NCBI GenBank assembly: GCA_001782825.1
Contig: MFPS01000002.1
Span: forward strand, 1-41,112
Origin: Candidatus Magasanikbacteria bacterium RIFCSPHIGHO2_01_FULL_33_34
GTDB lineage: Bacteria; Patescibacteriota; Patescibacteriia; Magasanikbacterales; UBA922
DNA: 41,112 nucleotides
Reading direction: 5' to 3'
Part shown: in pieces, positions 19,155 to 36,000 of the stretch
How positions within the stretch are numbered: position 1 is the first letter of the stretch
Layout of the letters: every line of letters begins with the position of its first letter
Program-made: the position numbers and the translations under genes
The notes under the pieces: model-generated
The model's input: only the letters and a program-made list of their open reading frames with translations
Databases searched by the model: none
What the model was told of the DNA's origin: nothing

Positions 19155-19258
19155 AATTAATGATTGGAGATTATCATGAGCGGATTTGATTGCCACAACA
19201 GGCAATCACCTCGGAACCACAGTGAGAATGAGCGAATGATAATCTCCAATCATTAATT
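19155..19258 (+). repeat. Structured intergenic element, copy 2 (perfect 23-bp arms, 58-nt core)
   Basis: AATTAATGATTGGAGATTATCAT / ATGATAATCTCCAATCATTAATT enclosing GAGCGGATTTGATTGCCACAACAGGCAATCACCTCGGAACCACAGTGAGAATGAGCGA. Confidence 0.9.
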
Positions 19259-21124: not shown

Positions 21125-21155
21125 AAAAACCACCACAATATACTGTGATGGTTTT
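21125..21155 (-). terminator. Terminator hairpin after asnS
   Basis: AAAACCACCACA-ATATAC-TGTGATGGTTTT. Confidence 0.6.
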
Positions 21156-21164
21156 AAAATTTAA

Positions 21165-21205
21165 AAATGTTTATATGTTTAAATGTTTGAATGTTTATAT
21201 GTTTA
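21165..21205 (-). repeat. Five 8-nt-period repeats (TAAACATW-like on the mRNA) starting at the asnS stop codon
   Basis: AAATGTTT ATATGTTT AAATGTTT GAATGTTT ATATGTTT A on +. Confidence 0.85.
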
Positions 21206-22492
21206 CGGTCTTACTCTGTTAATCATCCGAGGAAATGGAATAGTCTCACGAATATGATGTACCCCACAAATCCAACCAACCATACGCTCCAATCCTAGAC
21301 CAAAACCAGAGTGTGGTACTGATCCATATTTTCGCAAATCCAAATACCATTGATATTCTGGTCCTGAAAGCCCTTCTTTTTGAATTTCAGCTTTTAATAC
21401 TTCATAATCATCTTCACGCTGTGAACCACCAATCAGCTCTCCTGCGCCTTCAATTCCTATCAAATCATTATTTAATACAATCTCTGGATCAGTCGGGTCA
21501 ACCTTCATATAAAATGGCTTAATCGTTTTTGGCCACTTGTGAATAAATACTGGTACTGGTGAATCCTGTGTCAACATTCCTTCGTCATCATTACCCAAAT
21601 CCTCACCAAATTTAATATCAGATCCCAAATGATTCAACTTTTCAATCGCTTCTTTATAAGTTAACCGAGCAAATGGAAGTGTAAGCATTCTCTCAATCGG
21701 CGCAATATCCCGTTCTAATATTACTAACTCTTCTTTTACATTTTCTAAACATCTTCGTGCAATAAATTTAACCATTGCTTCTTGAATATCCATATTTTCA
21801 TCATGTTCTACATAAGCTGCTTCAGCATCCATCATCCAAAATTCTGTTAAATGTCTTTTTGTTTTACTTTTCTCAGCCCGAAATGTCGGACCAAAATCAA
21901 ATCCACGCCCAACCGACATAATAGCAGCTTCCAAATATAATTGACCTGATTGAGACAAAAATACCTCGCCCTCATCAAAATATTCAATTCCAAATAATGT
22001 AGTTGAACCTTCACAAGCATTTGGGGTTATAATCGGTGTATCAATTTTTACAAAATCTTGCTCATGAAAATAATCATAAATAGCCTGAATCACCTCATCA
22101 CGCACTCTCTGAATTGCCCACTGCTTTTTACTGCGAAGCCAAAGATGACGATTATCCAACAAAAAATCTGGTCCATGCTCTTTTTTGGTAATTGGGTATT
22201 CTTCAGCAATCTGAACAATCTCTACTTTTGAAACTTGCAACTCAAATACACCTTCCTGTTTTGGATGTTTACTAATACTACCAACAACTACCAATGAAGA
22301 TTCTTGAGTCAATTTTTCTACATTATTCCATACCTCTTCGCTCACCCCTGACTTTACTACTACAGCCTGAACAAAACCACTTCCGTCCCGTAGCTCCAAA
22401 AAAGCTATTGAACCAGATGATCGCTTGTTATACAACCAACCCTTAATCTCTACCTCTTGATTAACATATTGTGAAATATTTTTTATAAGCAT
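21203..22492 (-). CDS. asnS: Asparagine--tRNA ligase
   Basis: [58 protein letters not shown]. Confidence 0.96.
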
Positions 22493-22662
22493 ATAAACAT
22501 TTTAACATAAAAACATCTAAACATTACCACTTTTTTATACTTTTAACAAGTAGATAATTAAAGATAAAATCATACACAAAAAAATAACATAAATGCTCGT
22601 ATTTAACTATTTTTTAATAACAAGTATATTTGTATATTTAAATGTCTATATGTTTAAATGTA
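22485..22662. repeat. 8-nt-period inverted-repeat cassette spanning the recO stop to the asnS start
   Basis: Left arm ATAAGCAT ATAAACAT TTTAACAT AAAAACAT CTAAACAT (includes the asnS ATG); right arm ATATTTGT ATATTTAA ATGTCTAT ATGTTTAA ATG (includes the recO stop). Confidence 0.75.
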
Positions 22663-23413
22663 ATTCCCAATCTTCAATCTTCTTCTCACTATGAAACAAG
22701 ACAAATTCATAAATTAACTTATGAAGTTTTTTTTGTTCAACTTCCTCCATAGAAAAATCCTGTATTAGTCTCCAGTCATTTTTAAGCAATGCCTGTAAAT
22801 TTGATACTTCTCTCAAACCACAATCAACAATCTGTTCTCCTATGTGTTTTTTTTCTTCACGACACAAAGGACAAATTATTCCTCCACCAGCAAAATAAAA
22901 ACCAAGTTTTTTATTATTTAACAAATTATCTTTTGCCATTTCTTTATATGTTTTTTCACATATAACACAATAATCAAGTATCGGATAAAAACCAAGCACA
23001 GAAAATAAGTTTATTATGAAAGCATCAGTCAATATATTATTAAATTTATCACTTTTATCAACAAACTTAAGCCAACTTAAAAATAATTCAAATATTCTAC
23101 TATCTACTTCTTCAACTTCAGTCATCTGATCCAAAAAAGAACACAAAAATCCCGCATCCATACTCTTGTCAAAATTTTGTCTAATTTTAGCAAAAAAATT
23201 AATAGGAATTACTTTTGTCAAGTGCGCCACTCCTTTACCTTCTGCTATTTCAATTTGAACGTAAGAAAAAGGCTCCAAATGAGCCGAATTTTTACTTTGT
23301 ATTTTCTTGACACCACGTGCAAATAATTCAACCTTTCCAGACTCTTTGGTATAAAAAGTTATATGTTGATCAAATTCTTTAAAATTTCTACGTGCTAATA
23401 CTATTGCTTCCAT
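22646..23413 (-). CDS. recO: DNA repair protein RecO
   Basis: EAIVLARRNFKEFD..FYTKESGKV..ARGVKK..LEPF; Zn motifs CVIC and CPLC. Confidence 0.9.
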   Translation of the reverse strand: MEAIVLARRNFKEFDQHITFYTKESGKVELFARGVKKIQSKNSAHLEPFSYVQIEIAEGKGVAHLTKVIPINFFAKIRQNFDKSMDAGFLCSFLDQMTEVEEVDSRIFELFLSWLKFVDKSDKFNNILTDAFIINLFSVLGFYPILDYCVICEKTYKEMAKDNLLNNKKLGFYFAGGGIICPLCREEKKHIGEQIVDCGLREVSNLQALLKNDWRLIQDFSMEEVEQKKLHKLIYEFVLFHSEKKIEDWELHLNI

Positions 23414-23424
23414 ATTATATTAAA

Positions 23425-23530
23425 AATAAATCTAATAGGAATTATTATGAGCGGATTTGGTTGCCACAACAGGCAACCACCTCGGAGCCACAGCGAGAAT
23501 GAGCGAATGATAATTCCTATTAGATTTATT
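23425..23530 (+). repeat. Structured intergenic element, copy 3 (24-bp arms with one G-T pair, 58-nt core)
   Basis: AATAAATCTAATAGGAATTATTAT / ATGATAATTCCTATTAGATTTATT enclosing GAGCGGATTTGGTTGCCACAACAGGCAACCACCTCGGAGCCACAGCGAGAATGAGCGA; right arm overlaps the ruvX stop. Confidence 0.9.
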
Positions 23531-23888
23531 GTTTATCCAAATAAGTCTGCATAATCACCATCGCTGATTTCTCGTCGCGACTAACGTCACCACCCATACT
23601 ATCAGCTTGACGAGAACTAAATCTCTCATCAACAAACTCCAATGGTAAATTAGTTCTCTTTTTTAATTCTTCTGCAAATTCATTCACTCGCCTAGTATTA
23701 TCATTTTCTTTTGAATCCAATCCTAGTGGCATACCAAGCACAAGCTTGTCTATCCCTTCTTTATTTATAAGAGTAACCAATTCATCAATATTATTGACAA
23801 TACCATAAGGTAATACAACATCAAGCCCAACTTGAACCCAAGCTAATCCAATTCTTTTTTTACCATAATCAATACCTAACAAGTTCAT
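23526..23888 (-). CDS. ruvX: Pre-16S rRNA nuclease YqgF / RuvX
   Basis: LGIDYGKKRIGLA, LVLGMP, VDERFSS, SAMVIMQTYL. Confidence 0.92.
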   Translation of the reverse strand: MNLLGIDYGKKRIGLAWVQVGLDVVLPYGIVNNIDELVTLINKEGIDKLVLGMPLGLDSKENDNTRRVNEFAEELKKRTNLPLEFVDERFSSRQADSMGGDVSRDEKSAMVIMQTYLDKQ

Positions 23889-24040
23889 AGTGAATAGTTC
23901 ATAGCCAATAGGATTTATTTAAAGTTTATATACACTACCCGAATGACTTTTGTTAATATAATTTAATTTTTTATAAATAATTATCTGTGCTTCCAACTTG
24001 CAAAACTAACTATTAGCTCTTGGCTATCAATTATGAACTA
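23882..24040. repeat. 7-nt-period inverted-repeat cassette A (map-ruvX)
   Basis: AGTTCAT AGTGAAT AGTTCAT AGCCAAT AG ... CTATTAG CTCTTGG CTATCAA TTATGAA CTA; arms contain the ruvX ATG and the map TAA. Confidence 0.8.
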
Positions 24041-24825
24041 ATCTCATTTGGCCTTCTAGTAGCTACGACTGGACCATCTTTTGTAATGATAATTGTATGC
24101 TCAAAATGAGCATTCAAACTATGGTCCTGAGTAGATATACTCCAGCCGTCCGCGGCTGTGTCTACTGCATAATCTCCAATAGTTATCATTGGTTCAATAG
24201 CAATCACCACCCCTGGCTCCAAAATCCATGACTCCAAATTCTTGTCATAATAATTTGGAACTCGTGGTTCTTCATGCACAGCATGACCAACGCCATGACC
24301 CACTAGATCACGCACCACACCATACCCCAAAGGCTCTATATAGCTCTGTATAGCCTTACCAATACTTGCAATAGTATTCCCCACCTGACACTGCGCAATG
24401 CCAATTTCTAGAGATTTTTGAGTTTCTGCAAGCAATTTCTTGGTTACTTCATCAATATTACCAACTGGTATAGTGAGAGCTGTATCTGTAAAATATCCAC
24501 CATCTGCTGGGTATCGCATACCAATATCAATACTAAAAATGTCCCCATCCTTGAGAACTTTTTCTTTGGTAGCAATACCATGAACTAATTCATCATTTAT
24601 TGAAGCACAAATTGTAGAAGGAAATGGAGGGTCACTTGGACGAGATTTATACCCTTTGAAAGCTGGGATTCCACCCGCTGCAATAATCATTTTTTCTGCT
24701 TTCTGATCAACATCCCAAGCACTCATACCAACCACTACCATATTGGAAAGATCCTCTAATATCTTTCCCATTAGCTTTCCACCTTCTAAAATAAGCTCTA
24801 ATTCTCTATCTTTTTTAATATACAT
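24031..24825 (-). CDS. map: Methionine aminopeptidase type I
   Basis: CASINDELVHGI, SIDIG, DTA, GHGVG..HEEP, AIEPM, HFEHT. Confidence 0.96.
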   Translation of the reverse strand: MYIKKDRELELILEGGKLMGKILEDLSNMVVVGMSAWDVDQKAEKMIIAAGGIPAFKGYKSRPSDPPFPSTICASINDELVHGIATKEKVLKDGDIFSIDIGMRYPADGGYFTDTALTIPVGNIDEVTKKLLAETQKSLEIGIAQCQVGNTIASIGKAIQSYIEPLGYGVVRDLVGHGVGHAVHEEPRVPNYYDKNLESWILEPGVVIAIEPMITIGDYAVDTAADGWSISTQDHSLNAHFEHTIIITKDGPVVATRRPNEISS

Positions 24826-24826
24826 A

Positions 24827-25420
24827 TTATAATTGATCTAAAATTTCCATAATACTTTTACCAACCTCCTCAATTGATCTTTCACCACTTACTCTTTTTA
24901 ATAAACCAAGACTCTCATAAAAATATAAAATAGGCTTGATAGCTTCATTACCTTGCTCTTCAATTCTCTTTTTCATAATTTCCAACTGATCATCATCTCG
25001 CAAACCATTGGAAGTTTCTTTCCTATGTAAAAGTCTCTCTAAACTTAATTTGTCTGATATATTTACGTCAATAACAACAACATTATTTTCTACACCTTTT
25101 TCCTCAAAAAATCTCTGATACTTTTCTGCCTGTTCAACACTTCTTATGGCCCCATCCAATATAATCCCCTTATTTAACAAAAAGTACTTTTCCATCTCAC
25201 TAAAAACTAATCTATAAATTAGTTCATCATCTACTAATTTACCGTCCTTCATATCATCAAGCATCGCCAAATCATTAGGATCAGCATTTTTATCATCAGC
25301 CAATTTCCTCAACAAATTTCCTGTTGATATGTGGCCATAATTCAATTTTTTTGCCAATATTTCTGCCTGCGTACCTTTCCCACTCCCTGGTACTCCCATT
25401 AAAATAATTACTTTCGCCAT
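24827..25420 (-). CDS. adk: Adenylate kinase family (short LID)
   Basis: GVPGSGKGTQA, HISTGNLLR, LDGAIRSVEQA, LRDDD; likely start MAKVII at 25420. Confidence 0.85.
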   Translation of the reverse strand: MAKVIILMGVPGSGKGTQAEILAKKLNYGHISTGNLLRKLADDKNADPNDLAMLDDMKDGKLVDDELIYRLVFSEMEKYFLLNKGIILDGAIRSVEQAEKYQRFFEEKGVENNVVVIDVNISDKLSLERLLHRKETSNGLRDDDQLEIMKKRIEEQGNEAIKPILYFYESLGLLKRVSGERSIEEVGKSIMEILDQL

Positions 25421-25421
25421 A

Positions 25422-25712
25422 CTATTTATCAAATTTACTAAAATAATTTACAAAGGTGTTCATTAAAATTTTTTGATCATTTTCACTAATTTTATTTTTA
25501 TATTTGAGATTATATATAACTTTATATATATCACGCAAAGACAATTTACCATCTCCAGACCTATGACTTTCTAATTCAGAATAAACCAATTCTTCTTCAT
25601 CCTTAGTTAAAGATTCTACATTCAAATCTCTAAATATTTTTTTAAAATCTTCTAATGGAAATGGCTGTAATTTTTGTGAATACTTATTTGAAGGTGATGA
25701 AAATAAACCCAT
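25422..25712 (-). CDS. Hypothetical protein (96 aa, helical)
   Basis: ORF abuts adk; upstream promoter TTGCAA-17-TAATAT (25776-25748). Confidence 0.65.
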   Translation of the reverse strand: MGLFSSPSNKYSQKLQPFPLEDFKKIFRDLNVESLTKDEEELVYSELESHRSGDGKLSLRDIYKVIYNLKYKNKISENDQKILMNTFVNYFSKFDK

Positions 25713-25786
25713 ACTATATGGCTATATTATAGTTAATTAATAACAATATATTAACAAAGACTCGACTAATTTGCAAACCTTGTTAT

Positions 25787-25880
25787 ACAAACATCTAAAC
25801 ATATAAACATTTTTATAATAAATCCGCCTAATGGCGGATTTATTATGTTTAAATGCTTATATGTTTGTATGTTTAAATGC
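25787..25880. repeat. 8-nt-period inverted-repeat cassette enclosing a strong hairpin (probable terminator) after secY
   Basis: ACAAACAT CTAAACAT ATAAACAT - ATAATAAATCCGCC-TAAT-GGCGGATTTATTAT - GTTTAA ATGCTTAT ATGTTTGT ATGTTTAA ATGC. Confidence 0.85.
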
Positions 25881-25882
25881 AC

Positions 25883-27145
25883 TTATATCTTGTCGTATTC
25901 ATGAACTGTAACCTGAGCATCAATTTGTTTAGCAGAATCAATCGCCACACTCACAACTATCAACAGACTAGTACCACCAATAACTAATGCTTGTGAATTT
26001 GTAACCAATTGCATCAATAATGGCAATACAGCAACAGCTCCTAAAAATAAAGCGCCAATAAAAACAATTCTTGTCATTGTTTGTTGTAAATATTCTTCAG
26101 TTTGTTTTCCTGGGCGAATACCCGGTATAAAACCACCTTGTCTTTGTAAATTTTCAGCTATTTTTTCTGGATTGAAAATTACTGCAGTATAAAAATATGT
26201 AAAACCAAATACCAATGTAAAGTACATCACACCATAAAATAATTGATTTTGAAATAAATTTATTGTACCAATCGCCGCTCTTCCCAAAAAGCCTTCATTG
26301 CCTACAAAAAACTGAGCAATCATCGGTGGAAAAAGAATAATAGAAATAGCAAATATAATTGGGATAACCCCAGCCATATTCACACGCAATGGCAAATGAC
26401 TTTTAGCACCCTGCCCACCTCTGCCTTGTCTAGCATAACTAATAGGAATATTCCTTTGTCCTTCATTTATAATAACAATACCCACAACAGTTGCAATTGC
26501 AATCGCAACAAACAACAGATACGTTGATAAATCTGATGGATTGTAATTAACAGCCGCATTTCTAACAACGGTTGGAAGCGAAGCTACTATTGAAGAAAAA
26601 ATCAAAAGTGAAATTCCATTGCCTATCTTTTTCTCAGTAATCAATTCACCAATCCACATCAAGAATATAGTTCCAGCGGTTACAAACAACATCATGGTTA
26701 CCAGTCTAATTGAAGTCAAATCTCCAAAAATTCCTTGCTGTGAATTACTCAATAATTTCAAAAAACCATATGCTTGTAAAAATGCTAATGGCACTGTTGC
26801 TATTCTAGTATACATGTTTATTTTTTGTTGTCCTGATTCACCTTCTTTTGACATTTCTTCAAGCTTAGGCACAACCATTGTTAACAATTGAAAAATAATT
26901 GATGATGTAATATATGGAGCAATTCCTAACATTACCAAAGAAAAATTTTCAATAGTTCCGCCAGAAAATACATTCAACAAACCTAATATCTGATTACCAG
27001 CCAAAAAACTACTTAGAGCTTCTCTATCTACACCTGGCATTGGGATATGAGCTACCAAACGAAAAATAACTAGCATACCTAAAACAAAAAATATGCTATT
27101 TCTCAAACTTTTTATACCCCAGATTTTTTTAACTTTTTCCCACAT
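25883..27145 (-). CDS. secY: Preprotein translocase subunit SecY
   Basis: LGIAPYITSSII, GNGISLLIF, AGVIPIIFA, FIPGIRPG, GGTSLLIVV. Confidence 0.97.
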   Translation of the reverse strand: MWEKVKKIWGIKSLRNSIFFVLGMLVIFRLVAHIPMPGVDREALSSFLAGNQILGLLNVFSGGTIENFSLVMLGIAPYITSSIIFQLLTMVVPKLEEMSKEGESGQQKINMYTRIATVPLAFLQAYGFLKLLSNSQQGIFGDLTSIRLVTMMLFVTAGTIFLMWIGELITEKKIGNGISLLIFSSIVASLPTVVRNAAVNYNPSDLSTYLLFVAIAIATVVGIVIINEGQRNIPISYARQGRGGQGAKSHLPLRVNMAGVIPIIFAISIILFPPMIAQFFVGNEGFLGRAAIGTINLFQNQLFYGVMYFTLVFGFTYFYTAVIFNPEKIAENLQRQGGFIPGIRPGKQTEEYLQQTMTRIVFIGALFLGAVAVLPLLMQLVTNSQALVIGGTSLLIVVSVAIDSAKQIDAQVTVHEYDKI

Positions 27146-27162
27146 ACCTTAATAATTGCAAT

Positions 27163-27606
27163 TTAAAATTCTAATTTTCCGCCTGCTTTTTCTATAGCTA
27201 CCACTGCCATTTTACTAGCAAAGCATCCTTTTAGAGTAATTTTTTTCTTTAATTCACCTGTAGCAATAACTTTTACACCAAATTGTGGTTTATCAATAAC
27301 CCCCATTTTTTTTAAATATTTTGGAGTTACCACATCGCCATCTTTTGCAACTCTTTCCAAAACTGACAAAGTTATAGTCTGTTTTTTTGGTTTCAAACTA
27401 TTAAAACCACGTATTTTAGGTACTTTTTGAAGTGATCTTTTAAAACCTTTTAGGGCAAGACCGCCTTTGCCACCGGAACGAGCTTTTTGACCTTTCATTC
27501 CGCGACCAGCAGTTGTACCTTTTTGACTTGCATTACCACGACCAACTCTCTTTTTTCGTTTGTGAGAACCTGGTGTAGCTTTAATTGTATGTAAAATTGT
27601 AGCCAT
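27163..27606 (-). CDS. rplO: 50S ribosomal protein L15
   Basis: RVGRG..GTTAGRGMKGQKARSG; operon position. Confidence 0.95.
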   Translation of the reverse strand: MATILHTIKATPGSHKRKKRVGRGNASQKGTTAGRGMKGQKARSGGKGGLALKGFKRSLQKVPKIRGFNSLKPKKQTITLSVLERVAKDGDVVTPKYLKKMGVIDKPQFGVKVIATGELKKKITLKGCFASKMAVVAIEKAGGKLEF

Positions 27607-27629
27607 ATATATTACTTTATAGAGAATAC

Positions 27630-28199
27630 TTATTCACTCTTTGTTTTATCATCTTCTTTTTCTTCAACTATTTTTTTTACAGAATCAACTACTTCCTTTT
27701 TCATAGGCTCTTTTTTTACTTCTCTTTTCTGTCTTATTGGCTTAAACATTTGTAATGCTTCAAAAATAGCTTTAATATTTGTAATTTTATTATTTGTCTT
27801 ACTCATAATCTTTGCAGAAACATTTGGTACACCAGCTAGCTCCAACACAACTCGCACTGAACTTCCAGCAATAATACCAGAACCCAATGGAGCTGGTTTT
27901 AGCATAACTCTACCCGCTCCATACTTAGCTTCTACTCTATGAGGAATAGTATTTTTTGTAATTGGAACAGATATCATATTTTTCTTTGCTTGATTAACAG
28001 CTTTTTCAACTGCCAATTGCACATCTTTGCCTTTTTTTACACCATAACCAACTCTACCTTTTCTATTACCTACCACAACACAAGCACGAAAACTAAGTTG
28101 TTTTCCACCTTTTGTAACACGAGTAACACGAGCCAAATCAACAATCTGTTGGTCAAACTCTGGTTTTTCTTTTTTGAATTTTCCTTTGCCTTTTCGCAT
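27630..28199 (-). CDS. rpsE: 30S ribosomal protein S5
   Basis: RVTRVTKGG..SFRA.VVVGN, LKPAPLGSGIIAG. Confidence 0.96.
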   Translation of the reverse strand: MRKGKGKFKKEKPEFDQQIVDLARVTRVTKGGKQLSFRACVVVGNRKGRVGYGVKKGKDVQLAVEKAVNQAKKNMISVPITKNTIPHRVEAKYGAGRVMLKPAPLGSGIIAGSSVRVVLELAGVPNVSAKIMSKTNNKITNIKAIFEALQMFKPIRQKREVKKEPMKKEVVDSVKKIVEEKEDDKTKSE

Positions 28200-28228
28200 A
28201 ATATTTACAAGTAAAAATATTTAATTTT

Positions 28229-28597
28229 TTATAATATTAAACCAGCTTCACGCGCACCTTCTGCAACCGCCTTAATTCTACCATGATATCTATTTCCACC
28301 TCTATCAAACACTACTTTTGTTACTCCGGCTTCAATTGCTTTTTTACCAAGAGCAATACCTAATAAATAACCTTGAGCAACCTTACCTTTTCTATCCCCT
28401 GCATTACCCTTTTTGTCTATATCTTTTTTTACATTTGCACTGACAAGAGTCTTGCCAATTTCATCATTAATTACCTGCAAATATAATCCAGTTAATGTCT
28501 TGGTTACGTGCAATCTAGGTCTCTCTGTTGTACCAGAAATTTTTGCTCTGATTCTAGCTTTACGTCTATTTTTCATTGTTATTTTTGAATTCTTCAT
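28229..28597 (-). CDS. rplR: 50S ribosomal protein L18
   Basis: GTTERPRL, VVFDRGG.RYHGRIKA.AEGARE.GL. Confidence 0.96.
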   Translation of the reverse strand: MKNSKITMKNRRKARIRAKISGTTERPRLHVTKTLTGLYLQVINDEIGKTLVSANVKKDIDKKGNAGDRKGKVAQGYLLGIALGKKAIEAGVTKVVFDRGGNRYHGRIKAVAEGAREAGLIL

Positions 28598-28615
28598 AAA
28601 ATAGTATAAATTTTA

Positions 28616-29158
28616 CTAAGCTGATTTAGCTGTTTTACCAGCTTTGCGTCTAATAGTTTCTTCAAAATATTTGATACCTTTACCTTTGTATGGCTCTGGT
28701 TTTCTGATTGATCTGATTTCTGATGCAACTCTGCCTAACAATTCATTATTAATACTTTCAAGTGTAATCAAATTCTTTTCAACTACAGCTTTAACGCCTG
28801 CAGGCATTTTGTATATAACTGGGTTTGAAAAACCAATATCAATTTTCAAATCTACGCCTTGTAGTGCTACTTTGTATCCTACTCCATTTATCTCTAGTTG
28901 CCTCTTAAAACCTTCAGTTACACCTTTAATCATATTTTGTATATGAGCAGAAAAAGTACCCCAGAGTGATCTTTCAAATTTATTTTCTTTGTTAACCACA
29001 TCAACCGTAACTTTACCTTCAGCTATATTTACAGTTACAAATTTATGCAAATCACGTTCCAATTGGCCTTTTGGTCCAGAAATAATAACTTTCCCTTCTT
29101 TTACAGAAACTTCTACACCACTTGGAATTTTTATAATTTTTTTACCTATACGTGACAT
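28616..29158 (-). CDS. rplF: 50S ribosomal protein L6
   Basis: MSRIGK, GPKGQL, RKPEPYKGKGIKY. Confidence 0.97.
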   Translation of the reverse strand: MSRIGKKIIKIPSGVEVSVKEGKVIISGPKGQLERDLHKFVTVNIAEGKVTVDVVNKENKFERSLWGTFSAHIQNMIKGVTEGFKRQLEINGVGYKVALQGVDLKIDIGFSNPVIYKMPAGVKAVVEKNLITLESINNELLGRVASEIRSIRKPEPYKGKGIKYFEETIRRKAGKTAKSA

Positions 29159-29167
29159 ATATTTATA

Positions 29168-29267
29168 TATTTATTAGTTCGGAGCCAATAGCCAGTAGGC
29201 TATTATATTAAACTTATTTATCTGATTTATGTCAAACTATTGGCTATGAACTTTTTGCTATGAACTT
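29168..29267. repeat. 7-nt-period inverted-repeat cassette B (rpsH-rplF)
   Basis: TATTTAT TAGTTCG GAGCCAA TAGCCAG TAG ... CTATTGG CTATGAA CTTTTTG CTATGAA CTT. Confidence 0.9.
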
Positions 29268-29272
29268 GTTAA

Positions 29273-29662
29273 TTAATATATTGAACAAATAACCTCTCCT
29301 CCAATTGAATCTTTTCTCGCTTTTTTGTTTGTCATCAAACCTTTTGAAGTAGACAAAATTGCAATACCATAATCATTCAAAATTTTTGGTATTTCATCTG
29401 ACTTACAATACTTTCTGTGCCCTGGTTTACTTTCACGTTTTATAGATTGTATAGCAGGTTTTTTACCAATATATTTAAGTTCCAATCTCAAAACTGGTGG
29501 CTTACTTTCAACCTTTTCTGAAGATTTGATATATCCTTCACTAACTAAAATTGAACAAATATTCATTTTTAATTTTGAATAAGTCAAGTCAACAGTTTTT
29601 TTGCCAACTGCTTGCGCATTACGGATACGTGTTAACATGTCTGCGATTGGATCTGTCATCAT
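29273..29662 (-). CDS. rpsH: 30S ribosomal protein S8
   Basis: DPIADMLTRIRNA, SKPG, STSKGLMT, GGEVIC. Confidence 0.97.
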   Translation of the reverse strand: MMTDPIADMLTRIRNAQAVGKKTVDLTYSKLKMNICSILVSEGYIKSSEKVESKPPVLRLELKYIGKKPAIQSIKRESKPGHRKYCKSDEIPKILNDYGIAILSTSKGLMTNKKARKDSIGGEVICSIY

Positions 29663-29666
29663 ATTT

Positions 29667-29770
29667 TAGTTCTTAGTTCTTGGCCAATAGCCAATAGTAT
29701 AATATATATTAATTATGTCTTAGCTTTTAGTTTATATCTTCTATTGGCTATAAACTATTGGCTATGAACT
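29667..29770. repeat. 7-nt-period inverted-repeat cassette C (rpsN-rpsH)
   Basis: TAGTTCT TAGTTCT TGGCCAA TAGCCAA TAG ... CTATTGG CTATAAA CTATTGG CTATGAA CT. Confidence 0.9.
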
Positions 29771-29775
29771 TTTAC

Positions 29776-29961
29776 TTACCAGCTTGATTTTCGTACACCT
29801 GGCAATTTACCATCATTAGCCAACTCTCTAAAACAAATTCTACACAAATTGAAATGTCTCATATAACCTCTTTTTCTACCACACTTCCAACAACGTCTAA
29901 CAATTCTTGTGCTAAACTTTGGTTTCTTTTTAGATTTTGCGATTTGTCCTTGAGTTGCCAT
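29776..29961 (-). CDS. rpsN: 30S ribosomal protein S14, Zn-binding (type Z)
   Basis: [26 protein letters not shown]; 61 aa. Confidence 0.96.
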
Positions 29962-29978
29962 AGTATAAATAATTTAAA

Positions 29979-30527
29979 TTATTTTTTATCACGAAATGGG
30001 AATCCCATTTTCTTTAACAGTGAAAAACTTTGTTCTTTATTTTTACCTGATATTACAAATGTCATTTCTAACCCATTAATTATATCACTGGTTCCTGCAG
30101 TAATTTCAGGAAAAGCTAATTGCTCTTTAATTCCAACTGTATAATTCCCTTGTTGATCAAAACCTTTTGGGTTAATGCCACGAAAATCCCGAATACGTGG
30201 AAAAGTAATATTTATTAATTTATAAACAAAATCATACATACGCTCACCTCTAATAGTTACAGATGAACCAATACTCATTCCTTCTCTTATTTTAAAGTTT
30301 GAAATTGACTTTCTTGATTTGTTTTCAATAGGTTTTTGACCAGATATTGCTGCTAAAACATCATTTACATGTTTAACATAATTTTTGTCCTTTGCATGTT
30401 TTCCATACCCAACATTAATTACCACTTTTTCTAATTTAGGTACTTGCATAACATTTTTAAAACCAAACTCTTCCTTTAAAAAAGGTGCAATTTCATTTTT
30501 ATATTGTTGGTATAGTACTGATTTCAT
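29979..30527 (-). CDS. rplE: 50S ribosomal protein L5
   Basis: VPKLEKVVIN, FKIREG, PRIRDFRG, GNYTVGIKEQ.FPEI. Confidence 0.97.
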   Translation of the reverse strand: MKSVLYQQYKNEIAPFLKEEFGFKNVMQVPKLEKVVINVGYGKHAKDKNYVKHVNDVLAAISGQKPIENKSRKSISNFKIREGMSIGSSVTIRGERMYDFVYKLINITFPRIRDFRGINPKGFDQQGNYTVGIKEQLAFPEITAGTSDIINGLEMTFVISGKNKEQSFSLLKKMGFPFRDKK

Positions 30528-30550
30528 AAACTATTTTGTAATTCAAATAT

Positions 30551-30868
30551 TTAAATAAATTCACCGCTTTTTTTAGAAACTCTTTTCTTTTCACTACCTT
30601 CCATCTTAAAACCAACTCTAGTAGATTTCTTTGTGTTCGGATCAATAATCATGACATTACTAATATGGATTGGAAAAGATAATTCAATTGTTTGACCTTT
30701 TTCACCAGATCTTTGAGTTTTTAAATGCTTTTTCCTAAGATTCACTCCTTCAACAACAACATAATTCTGACCATTACTTTTGGACTTCAAAACTTGTATG
30801 ACTTTACCAGTCTTACCATTATCTCGTCCACTTAATACTTTTACATTGTCACCTGTTTTTATTTTCAT
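30551..30868 (-). CDS. rplX: 50S ribosomal protein L24
   Basis: KIKTGDNVKVLSGRD.GK.GKV, VEGVN, PIHISNV. Confidence 0.96.
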   Translation of the reverse strand: MKIKTGDNVKVLSGRDNGKTGKVIQVLKSKSNGQNYVVVEGVNLRKKHLKTQRSGEKGQTIELSFPIHISNVMIIDPNTKKSTRVGFKMEGSEKKRVSKKSGEFI

Positions 30869-30879
30869 ACTTTACATTA

Positions 30880-31251
30880 TTATAATACCTCTGGAGCTAA
30901 TGAAACAATTTTTTTATAACCTACCCCACGCAATTCACGAGCAACTGGTCCAAAAATACGGGTTCCTTTTGGTTCTTTAGTTTTATTATCAATAATTACA
31001 GCAGCATTTTCATCAAATCTAATATAAGTACCATCTTTTCTTCTTTTTTCTTTTCTTTGACGTACAATTACAGCATGAACGACCTCACCTTTTTTAACCA
31101 TACCACGAGGTGCAGCTTCCTTCACAGAACAAGTAATAACATCACCAATTTGTGCATATCTTTTTTTGTAACCACCAAGTACACGAATACACATTAGCTT
31201 TTTTGCTCCTGTATTATCTGCTACTTGTAACATTGATGTGTGTTGAATCAT
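30880..31251 (-). CDS. rplN: 50S ribosomal protein L14
   Basis: [35 protein letters not shown]. Confidence 0.97.
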
Positions 31252-31283
31252 ACTATTTTAAACAGTGAAAGCCTAATCGGCAA

Positions 31284-31553
31284 TTACTTAATTACTTTTA
31301 CTAATCTCCATTTTTTTGTTTTACTTATTGGTCTGCATTCTAAAAATGATACTACATCTCCAACTTGTGCTATATTCTTTTCATCATGTACAGCATATTT
31401 CTTGCTAGTAGTATATTGTTTTTTATATTTTGGGTGCATTTTCTTTGTCTTTACTGATACATGAATTGTCTTATGTTCAGCAACACTAACAACCTCACCT
31501 TCAAATTGTCGGTGTATAGATTTTTTAATTGTTTCAGTTTGATTAGTAACCAT
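31284..31553 (-). CDS. rpsQ: 30S ribosomal protein S17
   Basis: HPKYKK, HDEKN..GD.V...ECRPISKTKKW. Confidence 0.96.
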   Translation of the reverse strand: MVTNQTETIKKSIHRQFEGEVVSVAEHKTIHVSVKTKKMHPKYKKQYTTSKKYAVHDEKNIAQVGDVVSFLECRPISKTKKWRLVKVIK

Positions 31554-31573
31554 ATTCTTTGTAACTTATTACT

Positions 31574-31759
31574 CTACTTTTTTGAATTTATTAATGTTAA
31601 TATTTGAGCAACTTCTTTTTTTAATTTTCTTATATCTCTCACATTTTTCAATTGTGCGCCACTTATACCAAATCTTAAATCACGCAACTTTGATTTTTTC
31701 TCAACTAACATTTCTTCTAAATCTTTTACAGATTTGTTTTTTAATTCATTATTATCCAT
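31574..31759 (-). CDS. rpmC: 50S ribosomal protein L29
   Basis: LRF....QLKN...IRKLKKEVAQILT; operon position. Confidence 0.92.
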   Translation of the reverse strand: MDNNELKNKSVKDLEEMLVEKKSKLRDLRFGISGAQLKNVRDIRKLKKEVAQILTLINSKK

Positions 31760-31763
31760 ATTT

Positions 31764-32174
31764 CTATTTCTTTACTACTTTAGCCTTTAAAGGCATCTTA
31801 TGTGAGGCTAAAATCAATGCCTCAATAGCTTTATCATCTGGAACTCCACCCATTTCGAACAAAACTGTTCCAGGTTTTACAGTACATACATAATGATCCG
31901 GAGCACCCTTACCTTTTCCCATAGGCATTTCACTACCCTTTGACGTAACTGGTCTATCTGGAAAAATTCTAATCCAAACTCTTCCTCCACGTCTTACATA
32001 TCTGGTAAGTACTCGACGAGCAGCTTCAATCTGTCTAGATGTTACCCATGAATGGTCCATCGCTTTCAAACCAAACCCACCAAAAGCTACAGTATTGGTT
32101 CTTGAAGCAATACCTTTATTCAATCGTCTTGGCTTATGCCATTTTCTATGTTTTACTTTTTTTGGCAATAACAT
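31764..32174 (-). CDS. rplP: 50S ribosomal protein L16
   Basis: QIEAARR, WIRIFPDRP, MGKGKG. Confidence 0.97.
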   Translation of the reverse strand: MLLPKKVKHRKWHKPRRLNKGIASRTNTVAFGGFGLKAMDHSWVTSRQIEAARRVLTRYVRRGGRVWIRIFPDRPVTSKGSEMPMGKGKGAPDHYVCTVKPGTVLFEMGGVPDDKAIEALILASHKMPLKAKVVKK

Positions 32175-32182
32175 AAATTCAT

Positions 32183-32881
32183 TTATTTAGTTTCTTTTTC
32201 TTTTTTATCTTCACTGTTGTTTTCCAATTTTGAAAATTGATCTTTTCTACCAAATATTTCACCATGATAAACCCAAACTTTCACACCAATCTTACCATAA
32301 GTAGTATTTGCTTCACAAAAACCATAATCAACATCAGATCGCAAAGTAATCAATGGAACTTTTCCAGCTGACAATTTTTCTGCTCTAGCAATTTCTACTC
32401 CGTTCAATCTACCAGACAAACCAATCTTAACACCTTTTGCTCCAGATTTCATTACTTTCTCAATTGACTGTTTCATCACTCTACGAAATGGCATGCGTTT
32501 TTCAATCTCAGATGCTACAGTCTGTGCAATTATAGCAGCTGACAAAGCTGGTGAATGAACTTCCTGAATATTCAATTTAACTTTCAAAGACATCTGTAAA
32601 AATTTCCTCTCAATATATTTTCTTAAATCCTCAAGACCTTGTCCACCACGTCCAATAATAAAACCAGGTTTAGCTGCAAAAACTGTTACGGTCATATTCT
32701 TTGGACCTCTGGCAATACCAATAGAATCAATATGAGCATCTCTATATTTCTTCATCAAAAACTCACGAATACGAATATCGTGTTCTGCATATTGTGCATA
32801 TTTTTTCTTTCCAAACCATCTAGAATCCCAAGTATAAATAACTTGCATTCTATTAATTCTTGGATGAACTTTATGTCCCAT
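32183..32881 (-). CDS. rpsC: 30S ribosomal protein S3
   Basis: MGHKVHP, PGFIIGRGG, SGRLNGVEIAR, TTYGKIGVKVW. Confidence 0.97.
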   Translation of the reverse strand: MGHKVHPRINRMQVIYTWDSRWFGKKKYAQYAEHDIRIREFLMKKYRDAHIDSIGIARGPKNMTVTVFAAKPGFIIGRGGQGLEDLRKYIERKFLQMSLKVKLNIQEVHSPALSAAIIAQTVASEIEKRMPFRRVMKQSIEKVMKSGAKGVKIGLSGRLNGVEIARAEKLSAGKVPLITLRSDVDYGFCEANTTYGKIGVKVWVYHGEIFGRKDQFSKLENNSEDKKEKETK

Positions 32882-32890
32882 ATATTTATA

Positions 32891-32981
32891 TAGTTATTAG
32901 TTCGGAGCCAATAGCCAGTAGGCTATTATATTAAACTTATTTATGTCAATCTATTGGCTATGAACTATTTGCTATTAACTT
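32891..32981. repeat. 7-nt-period inverted-repeat cassette D (rplV-rpsC), near-identical to B
   Basis: TAGTTAT TAGTTCG GAGCCAA TAGCCAG TAG ... CTATTGG CTATGAA CTATTTG CTATTAA CTT. Confidence 0.9.
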
Positions 32982-32982
32982 G

Positions 32983-33444
32983 TTAATTAACTTTTTCACC
33001 TTTGATTTCTTCTACTTCAGCATCTTTTACATTTTCTTTGGCTTCATTTTCTTTATTACCTTTTGTTTTTTCTTTTATTTTTTTCTTTGCTAATTTTTCA
33101 TCAACTTCACCTTCCAAAACCAATGTAATATGTGATGTCCTTTTACGGATTGGTGTAGCTCTTCCCATAGCTTTTGGAGTCCATCTATGTAATGTTTCTC
33201 CGCCATCTACGAAGGCTACTTTAATTACTAATGTCTCTGGTTTAATCTGATGATTGTGTTTAGCATTAGCAATAGCTGATTTTAACAATTTTAATACTGG
33301 TTCTGAAGAATGCTTACTGGAAATTTGTAACTGAGCAATAGCCTTATTAACTTGCATCCCACGAATAAGGTCGATAAGCAAACGCACCTTTCTTGGGGCT
33401 ACTCTTAATTTTCGTAATGTTACTTTTGTTTGTAGTTTTTCCAT
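32983..33444 (-). CDS. rplV: 50S ribosomal protein L22 with charged C-terminal extension
   Basis: APRKVRL..DLIRG, SAIANA.HN, GRA.PIRKRTSHIT. Confidence 0.96.
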   Translation of the reverse strand: MEKLQTKVTLRKLRVAPRKVRLLIDLIRGMQVNKAIAQLQISSKHSSEPVLKLLKSAIANAKHNHQIKPETLVIKVAFVDGGETLHRWTPKAMGRATPIRKRTSHITLVLEGEVDEKLAKKKIKEKTKGNKENEAKENVKDAEVEEIKGEKVN

Positions 33445-33469
33445 ATAAACTTGTAATCAGTATATATAA

Positions 33470-33796
33470 TTATTTTTTACTATCTTTACTCTCAGGCTTT
33501 AATGCAGTAGTGCCTTTTTCTTCAGTCTTTTGCATCTTACCACCGTGTTTAACAAATTTTCTTGTAAGCGCAAACTCACCAAGTTTATGTCCAACCATAT
33601 TTTCATCAATATAGACATTCAAAAAGTCCTTACCATTGTGAACCAAAAAAGTAAATCCAACCATTTCAGGAGTAACAGTAGATGAGCGAGCCCATGTTTT
33701 AATAGACTTATTTTTTTCACCTGCATCAATTGCTTTTTTGACCTTTTTCATCAAATTTTCATCAACGTAAGGGCCTTTTTTTAAACTTCTTGACAT
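33470..33796 (-). CDS. rpsS: 30S ribosomal protein S19
   Basis: [29 protein letters not shown]. Confidence 0.97.
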
Positions 33797-33802
33797 ATTT
33801 AA

Positions 33803-33900
33803 TAGTTCTTAGTTCATAGTTCAAAACCAATAATTAATTATTTTAAAGTTCAATTACCATTTACTTATTTCTATTGGCTATGAACTATTGGCTATAAACT
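33803..33900. repeat. 7-nt-period inverted-repeat cassette E (rplB-rpsS)
   Basis: TAGTTCT TAGTTCA TAGTTCA AAACCAA TAA ... CTATTGG CTATGAA CTATTGG CTATAAA CT. Confidence 0.88.
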
Positions 33901-33916
33901 TTTTAATTATTTCCTT

Positions 33917-34753
33917 TTACTTTTTCCTTCTACTTACAATAAACTTATCGCTCCATTTACCTCTTTCACGAGTCTTAACACCCAAAGCTTTCTTACCCCA
34001 AGGAGTTTTCGGACCAGTTTTCAAACCAATCGGACTGTGTCCCTCACCACCACCGTGTGGATGATCAACCGGATTCATATTCTTACCTTTAACAGTTGGC
34101 TTCCAGCCTTTATGTCTCATTCTACCAGCTTTTCCCCATCTTACCAATTTATAATCTGGATTACTGACCTTACCAATAGTTGCTGAACAATCTTCACTTA
34201 TAAGTCTGACTTCACCAGATGGTAATTTAAATTGTGCCATACCATTATCTGATATCTGTAATTGTACACCTGTTCCAGCACCCTTTATAATTTGCCCACC
34301 CCTTAATGGAGTCAATTCAACATTGTAAACAAATAAACCAACTGGAATATGCTTTAATGGCATTCTATTACCAGTTACTGCTTCAATCTTGTTAAGAGAT
34401 GAAACTACTTTATCTCCAACTTTCATACCTTCAGCAGCTAAAATATATGATCTTGTATTATCTGGAGATACAACTAATGCAATCCTTGAATTACGATTTG
34501 GATCATATTCAATTGCAACTACTTCATATACAACATCATAATCTTGTCTTTTAAAATCAACTACTCTGTACAATCTCTTAGCACCACCGCCACGATGTCT
34601 AACTGTAATCCTACCTGTATTGTTACGGCCAGATTTCTTATTTAAAACTGCAGTAAGATTTTTTTCAGGTCTTGTTTTTGTTACATCAGAAAAATCCTGG
34701 ACACTTGATTTGCGTCTTCCTGGAGTAGTTGGTTTGTAAACTTTTACTGCCAT
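33917..34753 (-). CDS. rplB: 50S ribosomal protein L2
   Basis: GRNNTGRITVRHRGGG, IEYDPNR, MNPVDHPHGGGEG. Confidence 0.98.
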   Translation of the reverse strand: MAVKVYKPTTPGRRKSSVQDFSDVTKTRPEKNLTAVLNKKSGRNNTGRITVRHRGGGAKRLYRVVDFKRQDYDVVYEVVAIEYDPNRNSRIALVVSPDNTRSYILAAEGMKVGDKVVSSLNKIEAVTGNRMPLKHIPVGLFVYNVELTPLRGGQIIKGAGTGVQLQISDNGMAQFKLPSGEVRLISEDCSATIGKVSNPDYKLVRWGKAGRMRHKGWKPTVKGKNMNPVDHPHGGGEGHSPIGLKTGPKTPWGKKALGVKTRERGKWSDKFIVSRRKK

Positions 34754-34760
34754 ACTTTTA

Positions 34761-34854
34761 TAGTTCTTAGTTAATAGTTCGGAGCCAATAGTCAGTAGTT
34801 TATTGAAAATTATTATGTAATTTCTATAAACTATTAGCTATTGGCCATGAACTA
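34761..34854. repeat. 7-nt-period inverted-repeat cassette F (rplW-rplB)
   Basis: TAGTTCT TAGTTAA TAGTTCG GAGCCAA TAGTCAG TAG ... CTATAAA CTATTAG CTATTGG CCATGAA CTA. Confidence 0.9.
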
Positions 34855-34855
34855 T

Positions 34856-35293
34856 TTAAACACCTTCATGTATATTAATTGTTTTACCTTTTGGTAATTT
34901 AATAAATGCTTTTTTCCAATCAGATCTCTTGCCTAATCTTTGGCCAAAACTAGTTCTCTTGCCTTCAACATTTAATATTCTTACTTTTTTTGGCATTACC
35001 CCATAAACTTCTCTTATTGCTTCTTTTACTTGAAATTTGTTAGCTTTTATATCAACTACAAATGCATATGTACCCATTTGTTCCAAGACAGCAGATTTTT
35101 CACTAACAAGTGGTCTAATCAATATTTTATTTGAAGTAATACTAGCTGAAGGTACTTTCTTTTCTGATACTGTTTTTTCTGCTTTATCTTTTTTTACAAC
35201 CTCTTTTTTATCTACCAAAACATCAGCAGATTTTTTTGAGTCTGTTACATCTTCAACTTTATCTTTCTTTTTTAACTTATCAAGTAAACCCAT
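34856..35293 (-). CDS. rplW: 50S ribosomal protein L23 with ~50-aa N-terminal extension
   Basis: RPLVSEK, ANK.QVK.AI...YGV, WKKA.IKL. Confidence 0.93.
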   Translation of the reverse strand: MGLLDKLKKKDKVEDVTDSKKSADVLVDKKEVVKKDKAEKTVSEKKVPSASITSNKILIRPLVSEKSAVLEQMGTYAFVVDIKANKFQVKEAIREVYGVMPKKVRILNVEGKRTSFGQRLGKRSDWKKAFIKLPKGKTINIHEGV

Positions 35294-35305
35294 ATAATAA
35301 AATAT

Positions 35306-35935
35306 TTATTTTACTAATCTATTCTCTAATTCTTTTACACCATCTTTTGTTGTAATAATATATTGGTGATGTAGTAAATCTATAACATTAACATCAGATG
35401 CAGTCTGTATATCCAATTTAGGAATATTATTTACTGCTCTTTTCAAAGCTTCATCATTTTTTGATGCTAAAAGCAATGTTGTTTTTCCAAGTCCAGGCAA
35501 AGCCGCTCTTAATGTTGCCATTGTTTTAGTTTTACCATCTACTACTAAATTTTCCAAAACAATAAACTTACTTGTTTGAACCTTATCAGAAAGACACATC
35601 TTTACTGCTGTTTTTTTAGTTTTTTTATTTATTTTTTGTTTATAATTTCTGGTATTCAATGGACCAAATGTAGCACCACCTCCACGCCAAATAGGTGAAC
35701 GAATAGAACCATGGCGAGCGCGACCAGTACCTTTTTGTTTCCATGGTTTTTTTCCACCACCACTAACTTCAGATTTATCTATTGCATGTGCCCATGGTTC
35801 ACGAGCATTTGCCATCAAAGCAAGGTATACCTGATGAATAACTGCCATTTTTGATTTCAAACCAAAAATATTATCATCTAATTCAAGTGATCCATTTTCC
35901 TTACCACGATCATTGTAGATTGCTACTTTTGCCAT
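35306..35935 (-). CDS. rplD: 50S ribosomal protein L4
   Basis: EVSGGGKKPWKQKGTGRARHGSIRSPIWRGGG. Confidence 0.97.
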   Translation of the reverse strand: MAKVAIYNDRGKENGSLELDDNIFGLKSKMAVIHQVYLALMANAREPWAHAIDKSEVSGGGKKPWKQKGTGRARHGSIRSPIWRGGGATFGPLNTRNYKQKINKKTKKTAVKMCLSDKVQTSKFIVLENLVVDGKTKTMATLRAALPGLGKTTLLLASKNDEALKRAVNNIPKLDIQTASDVNVIDLLHHQYIITTKDGVKELENRLVK

Positions 35936-35954
35936 ATTATTTAATTCTTAGGTT

Positions 35955-35984
35955 TCACCCCGAGGGTGACCAGCCTCTGGCTGG
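35955..35984. repeat. 30-nt twin-hairpin palindrome, copy 1
   Basis: TCACCC-CGA-GGGTGA CCAGCC-TCT-GGCTGG. Confidence 0.8.
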
Positions 35985-36000
35985 CTTCTTATTCTGTTAT

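Follow-up and report, generated by a model that had tools for sequence, protein, structure and literature searches.

Why should six spacers of an otherwise compact ribosomal-protein gene cluster exceed 100 nucleotides (nt), and what are the inverted arrays of short units found near both of their ends? This question is raised by a stretch of 41,112 nt (hereafter the window; positions 1 to 41,112, forward strand, of contig MFPS01000002.1, assembly GCA_001782825.1) from Candidatus Magasanikbacteria bacterium RIFCSPHIGHO2_01_FULL_33_34, whose genes lie on the minus strand between 21 and 37 kb. Based on the analyses presented here, these spacers are probably gene-less cassettes of the intervening-sequence (IVS) type, one of them decayed with the remnant of a gene for a PF05635 four-helix-bundle protein, and they would operate along the lines set out below.

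Cassettes in the window and across the genome

Measured between open reading frame (ORF) coordinates, six spacers span 101-142 nt, and the remaining 14 from rplC to secY only 4-65 nt, in agreement with a preliminary description of the window that had singled out six unusually long spacers, each with two inverted arms of heptamers. Their ten neighbours are map, ruvX, rpsH, rplF, rpsN (type Z), rplV, rpsC, rplB, rpsS, and rplW (NCBIfam, all above cut-off). Read in the mRNA sense, every long spacer has its (TAG-N4)n arm on the 5' side and its (CTA-N4)n arm on the 3' side, built of the units TAGTTCA and TAGCCAA. Each starts a few bases past the stop codon with (A/T)AGTTCA TAGCCAA TAG..., and ends in ...CTATTGG CT(AT/CC)GAA CTAAGAA CTA, then 4-16 A/T-rich bases, and then the ATG. 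The pairing of the two arms in register, also proposed in the preliminary description, applies only in part: the arms are inverted, but the 3' arm includes 1-2 additional outer units (AACTAAGAACTA), unpaired before the ATG, as well as a recurrent CTCCGAAC variant. Relative to the stop codon, the base of the stem falls between -12 and +9 nt, and relative to the ATG between -12 and +23 nt, so that the predicted distance of 10-25 nt between stop and ATG after folding was about right. The features are as follows, with 5' and 3' referring to the mRNA and z to the fold relative to shuffled sequences:

23881-24040, minus strand: map-ruvX cassette; spacer 23889-24030 (142 nt), arms 24020-24040 (5') and 23881-23908 (3'), weak fold (z -0.6)
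23921-23993, minus strand: PF05635 gene remnant in the map-ruvX loop; EAQIIIYKKLNYINK..., compared with ETQIIISKKLNFINN... in the filled copy C7:194987-195422
29159-29272 (114 nt), minus strand: rpsH-rplF empty cassette; arms 29233-29267 (5') and 29175-29195 (3'), z -2.5
29663-29775 (113 nt), minus strand: rpsN-rpsH empty cassette; arms 29744-29771 (5') and 29667-29701 (3'), z -2.7
32882-32982 (101 nt), minus strand: rplV-rpsC empty cassette; arms 32947-32981 (5') and 32898-32918 (3'), z -3.1
33797-33916 (120 nt), minus strand: rplB-rpsS empty cassette; arms 33867-33901 (5') and 33796-33830 (3'), z -3.7
34754-34855 (102 nt), minus strand: rplW-rplB empty cassette; arms 34827-34854 (5') and 34761-34788 (3'), z -4.9 in one run and -6.9 in another

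The map ORF terminates within the first arm unit of the map-ruvX cassette. At gathering scores, Rfam returned no family in any of the spacers, and only one 16S rRNA fragment and one tRNA in the window. A role of the cassettes as terminators was set aside, as no T runs follow the 3' arms.

These six cassettes are part of a larger family. The whole genome (1.0 Mb, 9 contigs, 33% guanine-cytosine (GC) content, 99.8% complete) and three shuffled versions of it were scanned for three consecutive TAGTTCA/TAGCCAA units with at least 18/21 positions matching, which yielded 29 arms of ~21-35 nt in the genome and 0, 0, and 0 in the shuffled ones. Of the 29 arms, 28 are arranged convergently in 14 pairs and one is single, so that the initial count of six stands for the window and is exceeded genome-wide. 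All 14 pairs lie between co-directional protein-coding ORFs and abut their stop and start codons. Junctions beyond the window include rpsL-rpsG, rpsG-fusA, nusG-rplK, the one before rplT, ybaB-recR, mreB-glycosyltransferase, and sugar-metabolism genes (nusG, rplK, and the 74-amino-acid ORF before rplT were named without family scoring). Cassettes sit exactly from a stop codon to the next co-directional start, and do so in one polarity relative to transcription: when the 12 empty copies were oriented by host transcription, same-sense similarity exceeded antisense similarity in 56/66 pairs, and 17/17 aligned empty copies from three genomes end in ...GAACTAAGAACTAT or a close variant before the ATG, with columns that are conserved, not invariant.

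The two remaining pairs, C7:117771-118212 and C7:194987-195422, are filled. Each spans ~440 nt and encloses one ORF of the 23S_rRNA_IVP family, assigned to PF05635 (E 6.7e-38; 129.6 bits, cut-off 33.8) and TIGR02436 (122.7 and 125.6 bits, cut-off 24). In the second filled copy, ATT replaces the ATG of the first, and an upstream folA-looking ORF extends into the 5' arm, which therefore supplies its last residues and its stop. Hence 2/14 cassettes include an S23p/PF05635 ORF, compared to 0/6 in the window, where one retains a 73-nt remnant. This remnant, in the map-ruvX loop, is identical to the filled copy C7:194987-195422 at 58/73 nt in the same sense, with an alignment score of 43 (500 shuffles: mean 13.6, standard deviation 2.0, maximum 24). 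No gene trace was detected in the loops of the other 11 of the 12 empty copies (alignment scores 6-15). Because the map-ruvX remnant matches a filled copy, we conclude that empty copies derive from filled ones through internal deletion.

The single arm (C7:67175-67281) overlaps the called N-terminus of an epimerase-like ORF, whose true start is probably located just past the arm. It is preceded, directly after the upstream stop, by an array with a 9-nt period (AGCAGAATA-like on the mRNA), and may be a hybrid of two families.

Relatives and other PF05635 genes

Orthologous operons were compared between this genome (G000), its congeners G001 and G002 (the latter 86% complete), and two other genera, G003 and G017. 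The rplW-rplB spacer is 102 nt in G000 vs 3, 10, 25, and 31 nt in the four relatives, and the same pattern was observed for rplV-rpsC (101 nt vs 20-33), rpsN-rpsH (113 nt vs 35-54), and map-ruvX (142 nt vs 1-58). At rplB-rpsS, only G000 (120 nt) and G001 (112 nt) are occupied, and the spacer measures 10-14 nt in G002, G003, and G017, while rpsH-rplF is occupied in all three congeners. Conversely, these arms are found at rplN-rplX only in G001 (the 100-nt spacer of G002 has another arm type), and at rplX-rplE only in G002. Within G000, the rpsH-rplF copy matches the rplV-rpsC copy at 90-93% identity over 61-76 nt, loop and pre-ATG spacer included, and the nusG-rplK and rpsL-rpsG copies have a common loop. 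Since presence and absence at orthologous junctions are clean and some copies are 90-93% identical, the cassettes move: sister species have gained or lost them, and within a genome they have been copied. Chance or slippage as the origin of the arms was rejected because shuffled genomes include 0 arms and copies share loops. The family is also narrowly distributed, with a 17-nt arm motif (up to 2 mismatches) occurring 31, 27, and 51 times in the three congeners and 0-8 times in 38 other relatives (controls near 0), and the exact arm motif detected in 1/251 genomes sampled across the class, namely G000 itself.

Short DNA contigs (Logan, four runs) aligned to the region were for the most part fragments of ribosomal genes from other organisms. 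They often end at cassettes, and one X12 contig has 16 letters in place of 29660-29776, hinting at a relative that does not carry the rpsN-rpsH cassette. Both observations were judged too weak to use, and the explanation that cassettes offer for assembly breaks is accordingly a weak one.

Beyond these heptamers, PF05635 genes occur in 40/61 genomes from this taxonomic family, and a genome of ~1 Mb can include as many as 16 of them. Visual inspection of 30 such loci revealed genes located between inverted arrays of short units, the 3' arm always being the complement of the 5' arm. The unit itself differs between loci, e.g., TAGGTTT, AGCTTAT, AGTAAGT, and GATTAAA, along with 8-mers such as GTAAGTGA and AAGGCTTA and 9-mers such as AAAGTCCAT. 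We then scored 80 loci from Patescibacteria, Bacteroidota, Clostridia, Planctomycetota, Acidobacteriota, Elusimicrobiota, and others, using as controls windows displaced by 400 nt, which are mostly coding sequence. The best autocorrelation lag was 7 in 100/160 flanks, 8 in 30, and 9 in 12, with flat controls, i.e., a lag of 7, 8, or 9 in 142/160 flanks vs 59/152 controls. One common lag of 7-9 on both flanks was observed for 59/80 loci vs 4/76 controls, and an inverted repeat between flanks (score of at least 24) for 58/80 loci vs 2/76 controls. Such an inverted repeat was present in 78/117 loci, and 61 of the 77 that could be placed have same-strand ORFs on both sides, the median distance being 1.5 nt from the upstream stop to the 5' arm and 5 nt from the 3' arm to the downstream start. 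A clear periodic run was detected in 94/220 arms (interquartile length 26-34 nt), and 77 of these 94 scored arms include 3-5 units, with a mode of 4. The preliminary description had tentatively linked such arms to TIGR02436/PF05635 genes, with the window spacers as possible "empty" versions, and had suggested either a mobile or intervening cassette or a periodic binding site for a multimeric protein. Two filled pairs, the map-ruvX remnant, and the association across phyla bear out the link, and the orthologous presence/absence and near-identical copies support mobility.

On contig C65 of G002 (L125:2576-3277 and L125:17242-18651), pairs of TAGTTCA/TAGCCAA arms surround GC-rich, foreign-looking ORFs, so that arms can carry cargo besides PF05635. 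The first of these ORFs encodes 137 amino acids, matched nothing in Pfam or NCBIfam, and has terminator-like hairpins on both sides; another of this kind is found beside a run of N.

A possible mode of action and its rivals

In its complete form, the cassette holds a small PF05635/TIGR02436 four-helix-bundle gene between a 5' arm made up of 3-5 short units, here the heptamers TAGTTCA/TAGCCAA, and a 3' arm that is the reverse complement of the first. On the operon mRNA, the two arms would pair as an imperfect hairpin of ~30 base pairs (bp), the 5' arm would provide stops in all frames against ribosomes reading in, and the unpaired extra 3' units would form the A-rich leader of the next gene. 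The stem could then either bridge stop and start for coupled translation, or be cut by host RNase III as in 23S rRNA IVSs, and by either route the insertion would be tolerated within essential operons. The cognate protein, for its part, would probably read the unit sequence.

Several observations are consistent with these steps. Sense-strand stop triplets are more frequent in 5' arms (0.115 per nt) than in 3' arms (0.067) or shuffles (0.072), with 50 loci against 12, and all three frames are closed in 35/78 5' arms vs 18/78 3' arms. This enrichment, in line with the earlier remark that a 7-nt period brings stops into successive frames, fits a 5' arm that would end read-in translation in any frame and sometimes provide the stop of its neighbour. 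Folds computed from stop to start reached z of -2.5 or lower vs shuffles in 10/12 empty cassettes (5/6 in a separate run on the window), and the genome encodes RNase III (rnc, 232 bits, cut-off 166). Finally, fixed polarity together with unpaired extra 3' units points to selection at the RNA level, or to insertion coupled to transcription.

The unit sequence, moreover, appears to matter beyond its ability to pair. Arms shared 6-mers in 0.7% of pairs with 30-40% protein identity, in 44% at 60-70%, and in 85% above 70%, and only 1/2000 permutations reached the observed arm-protein correlation, a co-variation that can in part reflect common descent of entire cassettes. Several PF05635 subfamilies coexist within G002, each with its own unit; units of other subfamilies include AAGGCTT and GTAACTC, and cultivable Chryseobacterium, Flavobacterium, and Sphingobacterium species (loci L110, L123, and L080) also carry arm-flanked PF05635 genes. 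In cassettes from three genera that belong to Group I, whose protein has an intact copy on contig C7 of G000, 4-fold sites are saturated (22-46% identical), and arms nonetheless match both heptamers at 89-96%, which argues that something reads the unit sequence and that complementarity alone is insufficient. The first candidate for this reader, and probably the right one, is the cargo protein. Among its relatives of solved structure, 2gsc and 2rld include five chains per entry, and S23p of X. campestris is reported to be a homopentameric toroid (PMC4990558). One could speculate further that PF05635 pentamers read units at about one per subunit, that each subfamily and its 7-9-nt unit form a co-evolving pair defining a pan-bacterial class of mobile inter-cistron cassettes, and that 23S rRNA IVSs, gene-less hairpins of ribosomal-protein operons, and orphan heptamers such as TAACTGA are special cases of this class, a generalization that is tentative and, taken as a whole, rather doubtful.

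A number of results weigh against the IVS-type reading of the six spacers and should be set beside the evidence above. No target-site duplication was seen at the 8 compared junctions, no recombinase was found, and neither a reverse transcriptase (RT; PF00078) nor a Y1 transposase (PF01797) was found in the 99.8%-complete genome, so that retro-mobility and models based on REP-associated tyrosine transposases (RAYTs; REP, repetitive extragenic palindrome) were set aside for G000. Paired arms are not obligatory, as 17 of the 33 arm sites of G002 are single arms, of which at least 8 directly adjoin a stop codon (TAG type) or a start codon (CTA type). Despite the many TAGTTCA/TAGCCAA arms of G002, no Group I gene was found in this 86%-complete genome by a partial search, in which arm surroundings were queried with 30 proteins and 6 of its 10 PF05635 genes had their flanks inspected; gene-less copies may thus persist in the absence of their cognate protein. 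Two of the 12 empty cassettes, map-ruvX and rpsL-rpsG (z -0.6 each), fold no better than shuffles, and the RNAalifold consensus of 17 empty copies (G000, G001, and G002) includes 7 pairs with 1 changed on both sides, although covariation speaks neither for nor against pairing here because the arms vary too little and shift register too readily. A search for RNA runs covering 28500-35500 of the window returned none. The possible share of common descent in the arm-protein co-variation belongs on the same side, as do the mostly coding nature of the displaced control windows and an intergenic-gap control that yielded only 6 gaps in the 80 loci, so that displaced windows and shuffles form the basis of the flank statistics.

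Three other explanations were considered. The arms may primarily represent arrays of binding sites, one unit per subunit of a ring-shaped PF05635 pentamer on RNA or DNA, with binding driving mobility or controlling the cassette and the hairpin being secondary. Such arrays would account for the conservation of units across genera despite saturated 4-fold sites, for the distinct unit of each protein subfamily both within one genome and across genera, for the 3-5 units of most scored arms, and for the single arms kept beside start or stop codons in G002, and would suit the five chains of 2gsc and 2rld and the toroid described for X. campestris (PMC4990558). They fit less well with two arms that read differently on one strand, since a single-strand reader would meet only one of them, with a mode of 4 units rather than 5, with an octamer arm family of G000 (see below) that has no matching gene, or with the ~33 arm sites of G002, for which the partial search of that incomplete genome found no Group I gene. 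This explanation overlaps with the IVS-type reading, and we regard it as a credible contender that is nevertheless more likely wrong than right.

Alternatively, the cassettes could be host regulatory elements rather than selfish insertions, i.e., processing or attenuation sites that set ribosomal-protein ratios. Their polarity is fixed relative to transcription, 10/14 are found in translation-related operons (S10/spc/map, rpsL-rpsG-fusA, nusG-rplK, and the junction before rplT), and a comparable proposal was made for the TAACTGA repeats of other bacteria in the portion of PMC4679880 on which we rely. However, regulation of this kind is difficult to reconcile with junctions that vary between congeners: rplW-rplB, rplV-rpsC, rpsN-rpsH, and map-ruvX are occupied in G000 alone of the 5 genomes, G001 is the only genome with these arms at rplN-rplX and G002 the only one with them at rplX-rplE, and many G002 junctions hold an unrelated GC-rich element instead. 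With the remaining cassettes located at ybaB-recR, mreB-glycosyltransferase, and sugar-metabolism genes, we consider host regulation improbable. Less probable still, to the point of being hardly tenable, are miniature repeats driven by a transposase or RAYT (miniature inverted-repeat transposable elements, MITEs, or REPs and bacterial interspersed mosaic elements, BIMEs) that would adjoin PF05635 genes by coincidence. The cassettes do resemble such repeats in being short, intergenic, and present in many copies with terminal inverted repeats, but the genome yielded no Y1 transposase and the junctions no target-site duplication, no Rfam family matches at gathering scores, one empty copy includes a gene remnant, and arms are associated with 58-59/80 PF05635 genes across phyla vs 2-4/76 controls. 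The parent cassette, moreover, codes solely for a four-helix-bundle protein, and no parent encoding a transposase was found.

Neighbouring repeats and known systems

Other small repeats are found in the same region. A second family consists of inverted pairs of 8-nt units, (AAACATNN)n ... (NNATGTTT)n, with at least 14 arrays in the genome, including the following:

25791-25884 of the window: 8-nt-unit arrays in the secY-orf96 spacer
22513-22665 of the window: 8-nt-unit arrays between recO and a class II aminoacyl-tRNA synthetase (aaRS) gene
21142-21206 of the window: 8-nt-unit array
C6:39303-39592, C9:169618-169737, and C9:184552-184672 of G000: 8-nt-unit arrays

In the secY-orf96 spacer, these arrays enclose a GC hairpin (AAATCCGCC...GGCGGATTT). 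Arms of this 8-nt type were detected in 0/110 PF05635 loci examined, and no matching gene was identified in G000. A GC-richer repeat of ~74 nt (CGGATTTG..CCACAACAGGCA..CCTCGGAGCC...) is present at window positions 13867-13915, 19170-19243, and 23441-23514 (copies 78-93% identical). The ruvX-recO copy sits within a short inverted repeat (ATCTAATAGGA...TCCTATTAGAT) and resembles a further miniature element. The rplC-rplD spacer (window 35936-36000, 65 nt) includes two GC-rich hairpins (GCCAGCCAGAGGCTGGTC; CACCCTCGGGGTG) unlike the cassettes. The ribosomal-protein operon of G002 (L011) includes 6 copies of an unrelated GC-rich element of ~90 nt (..GACCAACGAGATCCCTCGCTCGGTC..GGGATGACAGATTT), at rplD-rplW, rpmC-rpsQ, rpsQ-rplN, rplE-rpsN, rpsE-rplO, and rplO-secY. 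Small insertions of various kinds thus land in this operon. Large insertions are found at other junctions of the same gene row in relatives, with gaps of 1310 nt at secY-orf96 and 2062 nt at recO-aaRS in G001 (L012), and 1273 nt at adk-map in G017 (L014).

Among known systems, MITEs, REPs, and BIMEs are, like the cassettes, short, non-autonomous, hairpin-forming, and intergenic, with polymorphic presence and derivation from, or dependence on, a gene-bearing element. The cassettes differ in that no transposase or RAYT was found and no target-site duplication seen, and in their internally periodic arms, strict stop-to-start placement, and fixed polarity. The cargo also shares its four-helix-bundle superfamily with Avd of diversity-generating retroelements (DGRs; PF22296, 26.7 bits; NF033474, 25.3 and 33.4 bits), but scores below the curated cut-offs (40 and 80 bits, respectively), and neither an RT in the genome nor a template/variable repeat context was found. 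Tandem 7-nt intergenic units are likewise known from the short tandemly repeated repetitive (STRR) heptamers of heterocystous cyanobacteria, which serve as a fingerprinting tool.

A closer parallel is provided by the intergenic direct heptamer repeats TAACTGA, reported by MacGregor (2015) from Beggiatoaceae, Cyanobacteria, and Bacteroidetes (PMC4679880). According to the parts of that paper used here, these repeats share with the cassettes stop triplets within heptamers, a location a few nt before start codons and within ribosomal-protein operons, sets of 2-6 copies, and the usual lack of a Shine-Dalgarno site, and both a mobile origin and translational roles were considered for them as well. 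However, they are direct, with 1 inverted set among 170, unlike the inverted pairs of TAGTTCA/TAGCCAA described here. The terms "four helix", "S23", and "intervening sequence" have 0 occurrences each in the main text of PMC4679880. In 110 PF05635 loci, three flanks belonging to 2 loci (both flanks of L032, downstream flank of L108) have a single TAACTGA or complement each, never in tandem, so that a link was not established.

The best-matching system is the S23p-type IVS. The intervening sequence of Coxiella burnetii 23S rRNA is 428 nt long, carries an ORF for S23p, and has a terminal stem of 28 bp that RNase III cuts in the middle; it includes 3-4 tandem GACAGAT heptamers ahead of the ORF, their number differing between strains, and similar elements are cited for Leptospira, Brucella, and Xanthomonas (PMC4990558). 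As far as the sections of this paper used here describe them, S23p-type IVSs and our cassettes have in common a PF05635/S23p gene in the loop (in 2/14 of our cassettes, none of them in the window), a terminal stem of ~28-30 bp (predicted for the cassettes), and heptamers in the arm upstream of an ORF that is often decaying, in an element regarded as selfish. On the other hand, S23p-type IVSs reside in helix 25 or 45 of 23S rRNA, whereas the cassettes lie between protein genes of operons, abutting stop and start, and are mostly gene-less; since they are located outside rRNA, they are not members of the IVS class in a strict sense. Cutting by RNase III was shown for the Coxiella element and is a prediction for the cassettes. 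Periodic arms of 7-9 nt, a stop-rich 5' arm, and co-variation between protein and unit were not found described as a general rule for S23p-type IVSs in the same sections, nor did we find, in the open-access literature, a paper linking PF05635/S23p genes generally to periodic inverted arms or to gene-less operon copies.

To our knowledge, the very large PF05635/TIGR02436 family has no known function outside DGRs. That its genes ride a stereotyped cassette, recognizable by arms that are inverted and periodic, by a 5' arm rich in stops, by exact placement from stop to start, and by a unit that follows the protein subfamily, provides a testable context for this family, links three separate observations (rRNA IVSs, intergenic heptamer repeats, and the long operon spacers of reduced genomes), and accounts, for annotation purposes, for unusually long spacers within compact ribosomal-protein operons. 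It also represents a natural module able to sit inside an essential operon without breaking it. Taken together, these comparisons support the view that, while the IVS type itself is known, an IVS-type cassette located between cistrons and mostly gene-less is new, and that it would likely act at the RNA level, as its rRNA counterpart does.

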